Positions 1,863-37,478 of a DNA stretch of 38,076 bases are shown piece after piece. Each line of letters begins with the position of its first letter. The first letter of the stretch is position 1. The stretch lies in IMG/VR virus record IMGVR_UViG_2690316068_000004, positions 1 through 38,076 of that record; one strand, 5' to 3'. A program made the translations under genes and the position numbers. Source of the stretch: a virus (Duplodnaviria; Heunggongvirae; Uroviricota; Caudoviricetes). A model generated the notes under the pieces. That model made no database searches. It saw only the letters and a list, made by a program, of their open reading frames with translations, and was not told where the DNA came from.

Positions 1863-4800
1863 TCAATGTTCGCTTCCTGTTAACTGCCGGACAAGTGCAA
1901 CCAGTTCGCTTACCTGATTTTCCAGAGTGGTGATCCGGGTGCCTGCTGTTGCCAGATTTTCACGTAACGTTGTATTTTCCTCTTCCAGCGCGGTAACGCG
2001 ATCATCTGTTTCACGGGCGACCTGAATAAGTAAGCCAGTCACGGCGGCGTAGTCAACATTCAGATAACGTGTTTCTTCACGTAATTCATTGCCGTCAACC
2101 GTTGGTCCCTGCAACTCTTTACCGTAATGAGTGAATGAGCCTACCGCTTCCGGTATTGCCTCCATTGCTTCCTGTGCAATAACACCAGCGTAAGGTAGTC
2201 CGTTTTCCTTAAGTGTGTAGGTGTACCCGTTCATTTTACGGATAGCTTCGGTTGCGTCACTGATAATCTGAATATTGTCTTTCAGCTCGCGGTCTGATAA
2301 CTGATTCAGTGTTGTACAGTTAATAGCACCGTTTACATCAAACAGCTGACCTGACGATGTTTTTTGAGCATAAAACAGATACGCGGCAGACGTTCCAACC
2401 TCAAAAACGTTTTGTCGATCACTTGAACCCCACACCTTGACAGCAAATGATAGTTCTGTATTACCTAAGTTCTGTAAAACAAAACGATTGCCAGTCCCTG
2501 TTTGTTTTGTAAGAGCTAAATCAACAGTTGAGTTAACCTCATCCTTGTTGATAGTGAGCGCCTGCGCTTTAGCCCCGTTAACAGCACCTGTTTTGAGTTG
2601 AACCGCGCCGTCATTACCATTTAGCAGTATCTCAGCTCCGCTAAAGAAATTTTTTAGCGACAGCATCTTACTTACGCCGACTGATGAACCCAACGCCCAC
2701 GCGAGAGAATTACCGGTGCTATCAAACCCACGTACAAAGCAATCCATTTTGCTATAGTCTGACGTGCTTCCAAGGACATCAATCCGCCCTCCGCCAGATT
2801 TTAACGGGTTAGATGTGGTTAATGACCTGACAGCAAGATCGGTGGATGAATTTAGATCGTCTACTGTTAGTAATTTCTTCCATTCCTGCGTCGTTCCGTT
2901 TTCAACTGTTCTTCCCCAAAAACCGGAATTGCGGCCTCCGAACTGCACAGCATAATTTTTACTAAATTGAACATGAATGCCGCCAAGAACCATAGAACCT
3001 GCCGGGCCGTTTGTACTGCCTGCAATTGGTATAAATTTATTAATGTTATCAGTATGCTGCGTGTTCCAGTCTCGTCCTGTTTTTGTAAGCAGTCCTAATG
3101 TCGTGTCGAGCGCTTCGGTTAAAGTAAGGTTTTTAAATTTAACTGCGCTACTTTCGCCAAGACTTAAGTTGTTTCGCGCATCTTCTACTGTTGTCGCACC
3201 TGTACCTCCTTGCCCAACAGCTAATGGCAACCAGCCAGTGCCATTATGACAACCCCACAAACCAGATTTGGAAACCTGTAAGCGTGGTGCGCCTGAAGAA
3301 TACGTAGAATATACGTAAGTTGTTTCTTTTCCCTCTTCAACCCTTTCTGTTGATACATCTCTCTTCCATTCAGACCAGGTACCGCTACCTCCTTCATATA
3401 TTCGTCTATAAGTAATTCCCGGATTATTATAAGGGTAGTACACCTGAACGCAGGAAGAAGCAGTGTTGGCTCTCGTTTGGAGCACTATTAAAGCGCCCGC
3501 CAGACCGATTGGGTAATTTAATTCTTCTGTTGCGTAAGCGCTCGCTGGTTGTTGATAGAAACCAGAATATTCACCGGTAAGGGTGTTTAGGTCAGTATTA
3601 GCAAGACCAGCTTTTTGCTCATACATTACCCGCAAGTTCGCACGTGCTTGCTCGATAGTTCTTCCACCAGTACCGCCCTGGGCTAAACCTAACGGAGACC
3701 ATTGTCCAGAAGAAGAATCATAAACCCCCCAACTCCCGTTAGTATGGATTTCAAAGAAACGATCGTTAGTTGGGCCATATATACGAGTCGTCGATTCGTT
3801 TTGAAATAATCGACTGACTTCATCTTTGCGAGCGTGGCGTGTCCATTGCGGGCCTATACTAGTTAACCAGCGATAGGTGTAAATGGATCTGGTGTTCCAC
3901 CCCTGGAAAATACCTGTATAAGCTGGCGATCCGTCAACCTGACTTATAAAGCCAGTTAAATTACCCTCACCCGATGCAATCGAAGGAAAACCCGTGGCAT
4001 TTTCCATGATGCGCATAAAGCCAATATAACCTGATGGATTTCCTGAGATGTCAGAGCAATCACGCGGTGATGATCCCAAACCGATGTTAGTACCAACAAT
4101 ACCCTGGGCCTGGTTGCGATAATTAAGTGCGTCCGCCGCAGATTTCGCCGCGTTTGTTTCACTGGATTTAGCATTAGTTTCGCTGGCTTTAGCGTTGGTT
4201 TCGCTGCTCTTTGCTGCTGCTTCGCTATTTTTCGCGTTGGTTTCTGATTTTTTGGCTGCTGTCGCGGAGTTTGCTGATGCAGTTTGTGAGTCTGCTGCCG
4301 CCTGTGCGCTGTTATCCGCATTCGTCTCAGACGTTTTTGCGGCCTTCGCGGAATTTCCTGCCGCCGTTGCCGAAGAGGCTGCACTACTGGCGCTCGAGGC
4401 TGCGCTCGTTTCTGATGATTTCGCTGCCTCTTTTGAGGCCGCCGCATCCCGGGCTGAGGTGGCAGCTTCTGACGCTTTCGTGGTCGCGGTGGATGCAGAA
4501 GTGGCTGCAGATTTTTGTGACGCTGCAGCATTCGTTTCTGACGTTTTCGCCGCACCGGCACTGGTAGCCGCCGCGCTTTTTGAGGACTCTGCAGCGGCAG
4601 CACTTTTTGATGCTTCAGTAGCCTTTGTTGATGCCGTTCCTGCGCTGGAAGACGCTGACTGAGCCGACGACGCGGCCTGTCCGGCTGACGTGCTGGCTGC
4701 GCGTGCTGAGTCTGCAGCATCAGTCGCATAGGTTGCCGCCTCACTGGCCGATGTGCTGGCATCGCTGGCTGACTTCTTTGCGGCTGCCGTGTTCTGTGCC

Positions 4801-33979: not shown

Positions 33980-34056
33980 GGATTGATCCAGTAATGACCT
34001 CAGAATTCCATCTGGATTTGTTCAGAACGCTCGGTTGCCGCCGGGCGTTTTTTATT
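33980..34056 (+). ncRNA. oop: oop antisense RNA with tO terminator, overlapping the cII 3' end; 5' end approximate
   Basis: Plus-strand ...gttcagaacgctcggttgccgccgggcgttttttatt matches the lambda t0 terminator region as recalled. Confidence 0.6.
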
Positions 34057-34296
34057 GGTGAGTCCATCAAGCGCATACTTAAAAGCCCTGCTAATCGGAC
34101 TGATGTCTGATGCCATTCCGAAAGCACACAAGACCGAAGCAATAAATCTCCAGTCCGTTCTGCTTATCTTCGATTCATGACAGCCAATCATCTTTGCCAG
34201 ACCGCGCTGGGTAATAGCTGACAGATTGATAAGTAAATCTGTTTCTGCGCGATCAACGTCACGCTGTGATAGTTTGCTGTAACTTGTTCTTTCCAT
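34000..34296 (-). CDS. cII: Transcriptional activator CII, C-terminus lambda-like and N-terminal region divergent
   Basis: 98 aa ending TNKKRPAATERSEQIQMEF as in lambda CII. Confidence 0.8.
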   Translation of the reverse strand: MERTSYSKLSQRDVDRAETDLLINLSAITQRGLAKMIGCHESKISRTDWRFIASVLCAFGMASDISPISRAFKYALDGLTNKKRPAATERSEQIQMEF

Positions 34297-34437: not shown

Positions 34438-34653
34438 TTAAGCGGCTTTGTGTTCCGGCGGGAACACGTCATCAAGACTGACTTTTGCGCCTAACTTGTT
34501 TAGGCACGCAACAAGAGCACGGCATGTTTTAAGGTCTGGGAAGCGACGACCAGATTCCCAATGTCCGATAGCTCCCTGTGTGCATCCAACTGCCTTAGCA
34601 AGTGTTGTTTGAGAGATATTCAGTGACTCTCGATATTTTCGTAGGTTGCTCAT
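34438..34653 (-). CDS. cro: Cro-type HTH repressor
   Basis: 71 aa from MSNLRKYRESLNISQTTLAKAVGCTQGAIGHWESG (HTH); GGAGGG RBS; divergent from cI. Confidence 0.8.
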   Translation of the reverse strand: MSNLRKYRESLNISQTTLAKAVGCTQGAIGHWESGRRFPDLKTCRALVACLNKLGAKVSLDDVFPPEHKAA

Positions 34654-34763
34654 ATGCCCTCCATAGTAAACACGAATAAAAAATACAATATGTACTTTAC
34701 GAATACAAGTAAAAATACACATTGTGCATGGATGGTTCCAGTACAAAGCGTAATAATAAGGAC
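34654..34763. promoter_or_regulatory. OR/pR/pRM region with candidate operator palindromes
   Basis: 110-bp cro-cI intergenic region; TACAATATGTA (34684..34694) and repeated ATACAA half-sites; shares AAAGTACATATYGTA with OL. Confidence 0.6.
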
Positions 34764-35423
34764 ATGAAAATGAAATGGTATGAACTGGCTAGATCCAGAA
34801 TGAAAGAGCTCGGCATAACTCAAGAGAAGTTAGCCGAAGAGCTAGGTATGACGCAGGGTGGGATTGGACACTGGTTGCGCGGATCTCGTCATCCATCTCT
34901 TAGTGATATTGGTGTGGTGTTTAAATACCTTGGTATTGATAACATATCATTCAACCACGACGGGACATTTTCACCTGTTGGCGAATACTCATCGGCCCCA
35001 GTTAAAAAACAATATGAGTACCCTGTTTTTTCTCATGTTCAGGCTGGGATGTTCTCTCCAGAACTCAGAACCTTTACCAAAGGCGATGCGGAGAGATTGG
35101 TAAGCACAACCAAAAAAGCCAGTGACTCTGCATTCTGGCTTGAGGTTGAAGGTAACTCAATGACCGCACCAACAGGTTCCAAACCCAGCTTTCCTGACGG
35201 GATGTTAATTCTGGTTGACCCTGAGCAAGCTGTTGAGCCCGGCGATTTCTGCATAGCCAGACTTGGTGGTGATGAATTTACCTTCAAGAAACTGATCAGG
35301 GATAGCGGTCAGGTGTTTCTACAGCCACTAAACCCACAATACCCAATGATCCCATGCAATGAGAGTTGTTCCGTTGTGGGGAAAGTTATCGCCAGCCAAT
35401 GGCCTGAAGAGACGTTTGGGTGA
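34764..35423 (+). CDS. cI: CI prophage repressor (N-terminal HTH, C-terminal LexA/S24-like autocleavage domain), non-lambda immunity
   Basis: C-terminus [35 protein letters not shown] matches lambda CI; N-terminal domain differs; AAGGA RBS before ATG 34764. Confidence 0.85.
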
Positions 35424-35462: not shown

Positions 35463-36020
35463 TTGGCAAAAATAGATGATTATCAGCCAAGCCAAGTAGA
35501 AGTTGATAAAGTACTTTATTGTAAAAAAATAGTTAACTTTTCTGGCGTTAAATGGAAACAGAAACCAAGTCGCTCTGATATGTGGCTACAAGCTCATATC
35601 ATCCCCTTGGATGAGGATTGTATACCTATACAAGGGCTAAAGTTTGAACTGAAATGGAAACCAGATCAGGATTCAGAACCTGATGACCCGATTTCTTACC
35701 CTAAAATAAATATTATTGCTTTCTATCATAACAAGAGGGTTTTCGCGGTAGATACCTATCACTTTGACAAACACACGAATAGTTACAAGGTCGATCATCC
35801 GAAGTACCAAGATATCATTTACGGTGCTCACTACCATGTATACTATGAAGAAGCTGGATACTATAGTGATAGAATAGCGTTTCCAATCGAAGATGACATA
35901 AACCCAGATGACCTGGTAGGGTATTGGAATTACTTCTGTAAACATCTGAACATAACTTACTCTGGGAGAATACCTTTACCGCTTGAAGATGAGTCGGGGC
36001 AAATGGGGTTTGGAATATGA
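35463..36020 (+). CDS. Hypothetical 185-aa protein, first gene of the module in the rexA slot; TTG start
   Basis: ORF begins 39 nt after the cI stop; AT-rich; acidic, Tyr/His-rich; no TM segments or motifs recognised. Confidence 0.6.
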   Translation: MAKIDDYQPSQVEVDKVLYCKKIVNFSGVKWKQKPSRSDMWLQAHIIPLDEDCIPIQGLKFELKWKPDQDSEPDDPISYPKINIIAFYHNKRVFAVDTYHFDKHTNSYKVDHPKYQDIIYGAHYHVYYEEAGYYSDRIAFPIEDDINPDDLVGYWNYFCKHLNITYSGRIPLPLEDESGQMGFGI

Positions 36021-36769
36021 TGTGCTCAACAGTGATCTCACAACTAGGTTTCGAATGCCATCCAATAGGCAAGACCTTGAGAATTATCAGTCCATTCACT
36101 TACTGTGATGATGGAGAGCATGTCGGTGCCTTTATCCGTGAAGTCAATGGTAGGTATTTAGTTAGTGACAGATGCGATGCCTTAATGAATATGGAGGCAA
36201 GAGGGATCTCGCTTACCAAAAAACGACTTGATGAGATACGACAATTACTGCTTAAAGAAGGCGCAGAACTCAATGCTCGAGGAGAAATCATTGCTTGGGC
36301 AACAGAAAAGGATGTCGGTGCGATTACATCGAACATAATTAGAGCTGGTATACTCGCATCAACTTTGTCGTTAGACTGGTATCAGCCAGTTCAAGCTGAA
36401 AAGTTTGAAAGTATGGTTATTGATTATCTATATCACACAGAGCTTAGAGACGCACTTTCTCTTCGTGAAAACGTATATGGCTTGAGTGGACATCAAATTA
36501 CCGTCCCTGTAACAATAAAAACCGACATACCTAAATACGTTTTTACATCAAGCGTGAAACACGGAGGAAGCTGGAATAGTGCTTACTCATTGCTTGGGAA
36601 ACTAATTGATCTTAAAGCTTCAAGTGAGGAGTATAACAACAGATTTGTTGTTATAGACAGCGAAGCAATTGGTGATCAAATGCAACAACTCTCCTTACTC
36701 TTCCATGAATCAAGCCAAGTTCTACCATTCTCCAAAAGAGAGACTTGGGTTAAGAGACTTGCAGCATAA
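36017..36769 (+). CDS. Hypothetical 250-aa protein, second gene of the module in the rexB slot
   Basis: ATGA start/stop overlap with the upstream ORF; soluble; no homology recognised. Confidence 0.6.
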   Translation: MMCSTVISQLGFECHPIGKTLRIISPFTYCDDGEHVGAFIREVNGRYLVSDRCDALMNMEARGISLTKKRLDEIRQLLLKEGAELNARGEIIAWATEKDVGAITSNIIRAGILASTLSLDWYQPVQAEKFESMVIDYLYHTELRDALSLRENVYGLSGHQITVPVTIKTDIPKYVFTSSVKHGGSWNSAYSLLGKLIDLKASSEEYNNRFVVIDSEAIGDQMQQLSLLFHESSQVLPFSKRETWVKRLAA

Positions 36770-36774
36770 TACAA

Positions 36775-36800
36775 CCCGGCCTCAGCGCCGGGTTTTCTTT
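36775..36800 (+). terminator. Rho-independent terminator ending the cI operon (tImm-like)
   Basis: cccggc-ctcagc-gccggg hairpin followed by ttttcttt. Confidence 0.7.
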
Positions 36801-36972
36801 GCCTCACGTTCGCCCACCTAAAAACACATAACCAATTATATTTATTGAAAAATAAATAGATGCAACCCACTAAACCACGCAATTCTGATCTCTCCTTACA
36901 TCGCCGAGGCAATACATCCACGCTAAAAAACAACACTATTAAATACAAAGCGTTATAAAAAACCACGCCAAC

Positions 36973-37016
36973 TTACAACAAATTGTATTGATCTTGCAAA
37001 GTACATATCGTACTAT
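36973..37016 (+). promoter_or_regulatory. pL promoter with OL operators
   Basis: -35 ttgatc (36988..36993), 17-nt spacer, -10 tactat (37011..37016); operators ttacaacaaattgta (36973..36987) and agtacatatcgtact (37000..37014). Confidence 0.6.
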
Positions 37017-37107: not shown

Positions 37108-37205
37108 GATCACCCAACCACATAAGATGTGGGATGCAATGCCGAAGCAACCGTCTCAGGAGGAGCTTCGAGATTGCATCGCCAAAGTTTATTCGGGAGG
37201 AATCC

Positions 37206-37478
37206 ATGTCCAGAAAAACAGAATTTAAAGGCACCGCAGCTTCTCGCCGTAGAGCTCGTCGCGCAAATCTGCAAAGTCAGGAGGCGATCAGCTCCGACAA
37301 GCTACACAGGCCAACCCCTTCACGAGTGGTCTTGCAATGCAAGCGCAAACCAGCAATGAGAGCAGAAGTGATAACTCTGACAACGTTGACCAGAAAATAT
37401 GAAGGTTCAACTTGTCTTCCGAACGTAGCTCTTTACGCGGCAGGCTACCGGAAATCAAAACAACTGACGGCGAGATGA
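37206..37478 (+). CDS. N: Antitermination protein N (arginine-rich motif near N-terminus)
   Basis: 90 aa from MSRKTEFKGTAASRRRARRANLQS; GGGAGGAA RBS; downstream of pL and nutL. Confidence 0.7.
   Translation: MSRKTEFKGTAASRRRARRANLQSQEAISSDKLHRPTPSRVVLQCKRKPAMRAEVITLTTLTRKYEGSTCLPNVALYAAGYRKSKQLTAR

Follow-up and report, generated by a model that had tools for sequence, protein, structure and literature searches.

One immunity type is common to the Stx phages VT2-Sakai (AP000422, AP000363), Nil2, 1717, and YYZ-2008, and it is also that of the Stx1-converting phage and Stx2 phage II (AP005153, AP005154). Non-Stx phages of the same cI2c/cro4 type include ev207, ev017, 2G7b, and PhiR57_1. The cI2c variants (VT2-Sa, Stx2 phage II, YYZ-2008, and 1717) encode a repressor whose carboxy terminus is 100% that of lambda CI and whose amino terminus is different, which was taken by the authors to imply different DNA binding (PMC3430580). 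In both AP005153 and AP000422, six 17-bp "putative operators" are annotated, half of them in the cro-cI interval and half upstream of N, together with PR, PRM, PL, nut sites, and a terminator of the PRM transcript. Predicted OR1-3 and OL1-3 of Sakai-type phages have been presented with reference to Fattah et al. 2000 (PMC4587872), and the six VT2-Sakai operator sequences are tabulated in Table S1 of PMC10742460. In the searchable literature, no experiment was found in which the cognate CI or Cro binds the six sites, nor any immunity experiment for the VT2-Sakai type, and a search with the exact strings of four operator sequences returned no paper. The VT2-Sakai-type module controls the induction of many Shiga-toxin prophages and hence toxin release.

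The window analyzed here is a stretch of 38,076 nucleotides from a tailed virus (IMGVR_UViG_2690316068_000004). It contains, with high confidence, a lambda-like prophage immunity switch of the VT2-Sakai/Nil2/Stx1-converting-phage specificity (variants cI2c and cro4). The CI N-terminal type, the six operators, and a divergent, adjacent Cro of the HTH_3 family, which define this module, are all present. Of 5426 complete E. coli genomes, 776 (~14%, about one in seven) contain the cro-OR-cI(N-terminal) module. Since the operators are annotated publicly, the mosaic CI is published, and the module is this frequent, the switch, its operators, and its hybrid CI are already known and ordinary, and the window adds nothing new on the mechanism. 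The placement in an immunity group predicts which phages the window prophage excludes and which resident prophages are able to repress it.

The early region is lambda-like and lies reversed in the window, with cII and cro on the minus strand and cI, two cargo genes, and N on the plus strand. cII (34000-34296, minus strand; Pfam Phage_CII, E 7e-34) is located downstream of cro in the PR operon. N (37134-37478, plus strand; Pfam N_peptide, E 2e-32) encodes the antiterminator and comes first in the PL operon. Positions 34654-34763 are exactly the cro-cI intergenic region, bounded by the cro ATG at 34653 on the minus strand and the cI ATG at 34764. The head and tail genes (1-25000, minus strand) form a lambda-type block that is 96-97% identical to those of the E. 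coli phages PhiR70_1, PhiR30_1, Turner, and 2H10. This block points to a lambda-like siphovirus prophage rather than a short-tailed Stx phage, despite the Stx-phage-type immunity.

cI (34764-35423, plus strand) is an intact open reading frame of 219 codons with Pfam HTH_3 and Peptidase_S24 domains, and with its Ala-Gly site it belongs to the two-domain lambdoid CI repressors of the LexA/S24 superfamily. On sequence grounds, it is a hybrid in which a lambda C-terminal module is joined to a non-lambda N-terminal domain. The N-terminal specificity module (34764-35012; residues 1-83, HTH_3) contains the recognition helix TQGGIGHW. It is 17 residues shorter than the lambda N-terminal domain and ~22% identical to it (16 of 72 aligned positions), as expected from the different helix-turn-helix that the initial annotation had proposed. 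The hinge and C-terminal module (35013-35423; residues 84-219, Peptidase_S24, E 1e-28) bears out the lambda-like C-terminus proposed at the same time. Residues 84-219 correspond to lambda CI 102-237 with a single change, L112 for W. The motifs VQAGMF, GNSMT, and FKKLI are the same as in lambda, so that the Ala-Gly cleavage site and the Ser/Lys catalytic region are present. At the DNA level, homology to lambda cI (93.4%) starts at window position 35013, which is codon 84 (query position 250).

The two modules of cI have different sets of relatives. Across 56 phage records, residues 1-83 show at least 99% identity, and 100% identity is seen in 14 records among the matches listed, which include Nil2, the Stx1-converting phage, 2B8, the PA series, and ev207. 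The same region is 98.8% identical to that of VT2-Sakai. The comparison of the CI N-terminus and the operators with known immunity types thus gave the VT2-Sakai type as the match. HK97, HK106, HK542, mEp234, and ev099 share the C-terminal module of ~410 nt at 92-95% DNA identity with the same junction, whereas their N-terminal coding regions are unlike that of the window and the alignment ends at the junction, at the sensitivity of one DNA search. Escherichia phage EC.P3 (PQ657771) matches only the 249 nt of cI that encode the N-terminal domain (34764-35012), at 100%. The match stops where the lambda homology begins, suggesting either an independent exchange of the N-terminal module or a truncated gene.

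cro (34438-34653, minus strand) encodes a 71-aa protein of the HTH_3 family (Pfam, E 4e-12) with the recognition helix TQGAIGHW. A non-lambda Cro had been proposed, and the comparison agrees: no alignment between window Cro and lambda Cro was obtained with E <= 100. The Cro proteins of 683R2 and phiKp_30 share 99% identity with window Cro, which also aligns with the N-terminal domain of the window CI (E 9e-13), and the two recognition helices, TQGAIGHW and TQGGIGHW, differ at one position. Chain A of PDB 28tn ("lambda repressor-like protein", 82 aa) is similar to Cro residues 1-69 (E 4.5e-17), and this match provides a solved structure of a fairly close Cro relative that is usable for modelling.

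Six 17-bp pseudo-palindromic sites were found, three between cro and cI (OR) and three before pL and N (OL). The initial annotation had recognized one shared element and loose palindromes of the TACAA/TTGTA type; both exist, but they give a partial picture of what are in fact six 17-bp sites. The clearest of these palindromes is OL2. We regard the six sites as putative repressor-binding operators of a lambda-like prophage switch. OR1 lies at 34681-34697 (AAATACAATATGTACTT), is identical to VT2-Sakai OR1, and scores 22.9 bits with a symmetric weight matrix, ranking first of 38025 positions when it is left out of the matrix. OR2 (34713-34729, AAATACACATTGTGCAT) is identical to VT2-Sakai OR2 and is the weakest of the six operators, with 17.0 bits and a leave-one-out rank of 3 of 38025. 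OR3 (34739-34755, CAGTACAAAGCGTAATA) differs from VT2-Sakai OR3 by one mismatch at position 8 and scores 19.0 bits. On the other side, OL3 (36941-36957, AAATACAAAGCGTTATA) and OL2 (36974-36990, TACAACAAATTGTATTG) each have one mismatch to their VT2-Sakai counterparts and score 18.3 bits, and OL1 (36999-37015, AAGTACATATCGTACTA) is identical to VT2-Sakai OL1 with 21.0 bits. OR3, OL3, OL2, and OL1 all rank first when left out. The same pattern of three exact operators (OR1, OR2, and OL1) and three with one mismatch each (OR3, OL2, and OL3) applies to the comparison with AP005153.

The twelve half-sites give the consensus WARTACRA, in which A5 and C6 are invariant. With the symmetric matrix, the six sites range from 17.0 to 22.9 bits, and the best other position in 38 kb reaches 11.9. 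The top two non-operator matches (24700 and 17054) are in the structural-gene part of the prophage. The IUPAC consensus WARTACRNNNYGTAYTW barely discriminates, giving 32 matches with <=3 mismatches in the window against 23.5 expected; therefore, the weight matrix was used and relied on. The centre-to-centre spacing is 32 and 26 bp in OR and 33 and 25 bp in OL, and OR1 is 2318 bp from OL1. Recurrence of the motif at non-regulatory sites across the genome would have counted against the proposed operators; it does not recur there and is confined to OR and OL.

Comparison with relatives indicates that the sites are conserved. The DNA of cro, OR, and OL is 87-98% identical to that of VT2-Sakai-type relatives, and the cro-OR segment has 95.6-98.5% DNA identity to 2G7b, ev207, YYZ-2008, and VT2-Sakai. 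In an alignment of eight sequences (the window, ev207, 2G7b, 1717, the Stx1 phage, VT2-Sakai, 683R2, and Klebsiella phiKp_30, the last excluded from the OL counts of the pooled test), operator columns were less variable than other non-coding columns (14 of 102 versus 48 of 129; Fisher p = 5e-5). Among the 14 variable operator columns, 11 are outer (positions 1 and 3) or central (positions 8 and 9), and positions 5, 6, and 7 account for one each.

Klebsiella phage phiKp_30 (LC768498) was isolated on Klebsiella from sewage. Within positions 701-1207 it retains cro, OR1-3, and OL2/OL1 of this immunity type and has no cI, with OL2 located ~100 bp after OR3. The arrangement resembles a cI deletion that arose naturally, and the phage presumably grows only lytically. 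Over the full 2.9 kb, ev207 and ev017 are 99.8% identical to the window. Seven differences separate the window from ev207 over these 2.9 kb, and five of them are in or beside OR/OL (34677, 34699, 34746, 36997, and 37018). Just one of these, at OR3 position 8, falls within an operator. Either a relaxed constraint in the spacers or diversifying selection acting on the switch could account for this clustering.

The clustering also bears on whether the sites are operators of a switch that is defective or altered in the window prophage, with the motif possibly a relic. The VT2-Sakai cI is reported as truncated, a stop codon removing 60 N-terminal residues of CI (PMC3430580). In the window, however, cI is an intact frame of 219 codons whose first 83 residues are the widely shared ones described above, and its DNA is 100% identical to that of the isolated phages ev207, ev017, and PhiR63_2. 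cro, cII, and N are also intact, and none of the differences from ev207 lies in a conserved half-site core, OR3 position 8 being the only one within an operator. A defective switch is therefore very unlikely, and the sites are better read as operators of an intact one.

Three promoters were predicted among these sites, and their positions match public annotation. Predicted PR (34708-34680, minus strand) has the -35 element TTGTAT (34708-34703), a 17-nt spacer, and the -10 element TATTTT (34685-34680), and both AP000422 and AP005153 place a "putative major rightward promoter" there. Predicted PRM (34729-34757, plus strand) consists of TGGATG (34729-34734), a 17-nt spacer, and AATAAT (34752-34757), where AP000422 has its "putative maintenance promoter for cI". 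Predicted PL (36988-37016, plus strand) consists of TTGATC (36988-36993), a 17-nt spacer, and TACTAT (37011-37016), and it corresponds to the "putative major leftward promoter" in AP000422. The PL -35 element is TTGATC in the window and TTGACC in the Stx phages. All three are weak consensus matches, and none of the three reached the threshold of the promoter scanner, which was 9 of 12 consensus positions. The initial annotation had placed the element over the spacer and -10 of a good sigma-70 promoter at pL. The placement is correct, but with 8 of 12 consensus positions, below the threshold of the scanner, "good" was generous.

The operators overlap or adjoin these promoters, consistent with the operator function first proposed for the motif, in which the cognate CI would bind it. 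OR1 covers the PR spacer and -10. OR2 lies upstream of the PR -35 at a distance of 4 bp and adjoins the PRM -35, and OR3 covers the PRM spacer and -10. In the leftward region, OL1 covers the PL spacer and -10, and OL2 shares 3 bp with the PL -35.

The element first noticed as common to the cro-cI intergenic and pL regions is the 15-mer AAAGTACATATYGTA, which forms the core of OR1 and OL1. It is present at both regions and nowhere else, with exactly two copies in 38 kb even when <=2 mismatches are allowed. The first copy (34684-34698, minus strand) is the T variant and the second (36998-37012, plus strand) is the C variant. Two copies compare with 0.06 expected, and none of 100 shuffles reached two. 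Because each copy covers spacer and -10 sequence in a predicted promoter, the 15-mer might reflect the common descent of similar PR and PL promoters, which share spacer and -10 sequence, rather than an operator bound by a protein. This is highly improbable. Four further sites with the same dyad-symmetric half-sites are placed differently relative to the promoters, OR2 being upstream of the PR -35, OR3 on the PRM -10, OL2 on the PL -35, and OL3 upstream of PL, and on this basis simple promoter paralogy was rejected. In addition, the motif is palindromic, which promoters do not need to be, and the operator cores are conserved in relatives while the sequence between them diverges. The Salmonella phage ST64T also has the same six-site pattern with different flanks. 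Their A+T-richness and the lack of cognate binding data in the searchable literature might allow the palindromes to be chiefly the target of a different protein, for example a nucleoid protein of the host or another regulator of the phage. This is scarcely credible, because the motif is found only beside the cI-cro module, accompanies that module in phages of E. coli, Klebsiella, and Salmonella whose neighbours are otherwise different, and belongs to a family that tracks the CI N-terminal/Cro family.

Reading the sites as CI and Cro operators, the working of the switch can be proposed by analogy with lambda, 434, and P22. CI dimers would bind the six 17-bp operators (half-site WARTACRA) through the HTH_3 N-terminal domain. 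The lytic promoters would then be turned off by CI at OR1, on the PR -10 and spacer, and at OL1 and OL2, on the PL -10 and -35. CI at OR2, which abuts the weak PRM -35, could activate its own synthesis, and CI at OR3, on the PRM -10, would lead to negative autoregulation. Cro would occupy the same sites as CI and lock in lytic growth; the near-identical recognition helices of CI and Cro are what is expected of proteins in competition for shared sites. Dimerisation, dimer-dimer cooperativity, and RecA-stimulated self-cleavage at Ala-Gly would come from the lambda-type hinge and C-terminal domain. Looping between OL and OR is probable given the lambda-type C-terminal domain of CI. The operator spacing is unlike that of lambda, and pairwise cooperativity in the lambda style is not simply assumable; with spacings of 32/26 and 33/25 bp, its pattern may differ from that of lambda.

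The start of cI has two in-frame candidates. The predicted PRM -10 ends 6 nt before the ATG at 34764 (window 34752-34770). With the -10 so close to this codon, transcription from PRM may yield an mRNA without a leader; in lambda, the PRM transcript is leaderless and the establishment promoter is PRE. The second in-frame ATG, at 34770, is the annotated start in AP000422 and has AAGGA (34758-34762) upstream. It could serve transcripts from further upstream, for example from an establishment promoter.

Two cargo genes occupy the rexA/rexB position after cI (35463-36020 and 36017-36769, plus strand). They contain DUF6978 (below the Pfam cut-off) and DUF1828 and belong to PHROG families without known function. 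Presumably they are co-transcribed with cI. An intrinsic-terminator-like hairpin at 36773-36794 on the plus strand ends the cI operon, and its counterpart in AP000422 is the "putative rho independent terminator for pRM transcript"; promoter and terminator positions in AP005153 and AP000422 thus match those of the window. Between cI and OL, the Stx phages carry one unrelated ORF instead of the DUF6978 and DUF1828 genes. As homo-immune Stx phages have a different single ORF there, the position is a swappable cargo slot. The cassette matches a PADLOC candidate defence system (PDC-M24A, E 5e-4; PDC-M24B, E 5e-10), and the slot possibly serves anti-phage defence.

The resemblance of the locus to lambda lies in its architecture. 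The gene order, the divergent cI and cro, the three plus three 17-bp operators, and the operon layout of cI, cargo, and terminator are all lambda-like, and the OL-OR distance is 2407 bp in lambda and 2318 bp in the window. In contrast, the operators of lambda are spaced at 24/23 bp in OR and 20/24 bp in OL, compared with 32/26 and 33/25 bp here, and the window Cro is of another family. The non-lambda specificity that had been proposed is upheld by the operators themselves. With a lambda matrix, the six sites of the window score from -11 to -23 bits, and scoring in the opposite direction is equally negative. The lambda operator consensus TATCACCGC had 4 matches in the window against 4.0 expected, a chance level, with none in OR or OL. 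The operator consensus and matrix, the CI N-terminal domain, and Cro rule out the imm-lambda specificity. In the only binding experiment found for these sequences, lambda CI bound VT2-Sakai sites at 3.7-6.4 uM, compared with 0.2-3 uM for its own sites (PMC10742460). This weak binding fits heteroimmunity, and it tests no cognate pair.

A second operator type known from an Stx phage was also compared. The O104:H4 Stx2 phage BAA2326 has footprinted operators, ATAACTGTGCGTAATG and ATATCTGCGGTGTTGAC, and a repressor reported to be ~61% identical to lambda CI (PMC5977221). Both operator sequences are absent from the window OR and OL with <=3 mismatches, and the BAA2326 type was rejected.

Among classical systems, to judge from the sequences, the nearest relative of the window switch is immC of Salmonella phage L/ST64T, the two phages being 99.9% identical (PMC8022706). 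ST64T CI and Cro both have the recognition helix TQGAIGHW, near-identical to those of the window, and the phage has three plus three operators of the AAGTACA-N3-TGTAYT type, such as AAGTACATTTTGTATTG. A matrix built from the six ST64T sites only, and so independent of the window and of its annotated relatives, gave its four highest scores in the window to OR1, OL1, OR3, and OL2, with OR2 sixth and OL3 seventh. In the opposite direction, the ST64T sites (2416-2492 and 3228-3299) scored up to 20.8 bits with the window matrix, for which the window sites themselves range from 17 to 23. The nearly identical helices, together with each matrix finding the operators of the other phage, raise the possibility that the VT2-Sakai-type and L/ST64T switches recognise effectively the same operators and are partly cross-immune or cross-regulating. 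We hold this only tentatively and consider it unlikely. Window OR1 reaches 22.5 bits with the ST64T matrix; site similarity of this kind cannot decide cross-immunity. If the two switches do share operators, specificity within the family would be set by spacing, central bases, or cooperativity and not by the half-site sequence. The likeness raises, speculatively, the question whether a common E. coli prophage type and a Salmonella P22-like type are cross-immune.

Several features separate the two systems. The ST64T CI N-terminal region is ~55% identical to that of the window, and by CI and Cro type (CI 45% overall, Cro 69%) the window is a relative of phage L/ST64T immC and not a member of it. 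The ST64T CI C-terminal domain is not lambda-like, its OL is only 867 bp from OR, and the phage has another host and another virion type, that of a P22-like podovirus. The OR spacing of ST64T (34/26 bp) is similar to the 32/26 bp of the window.
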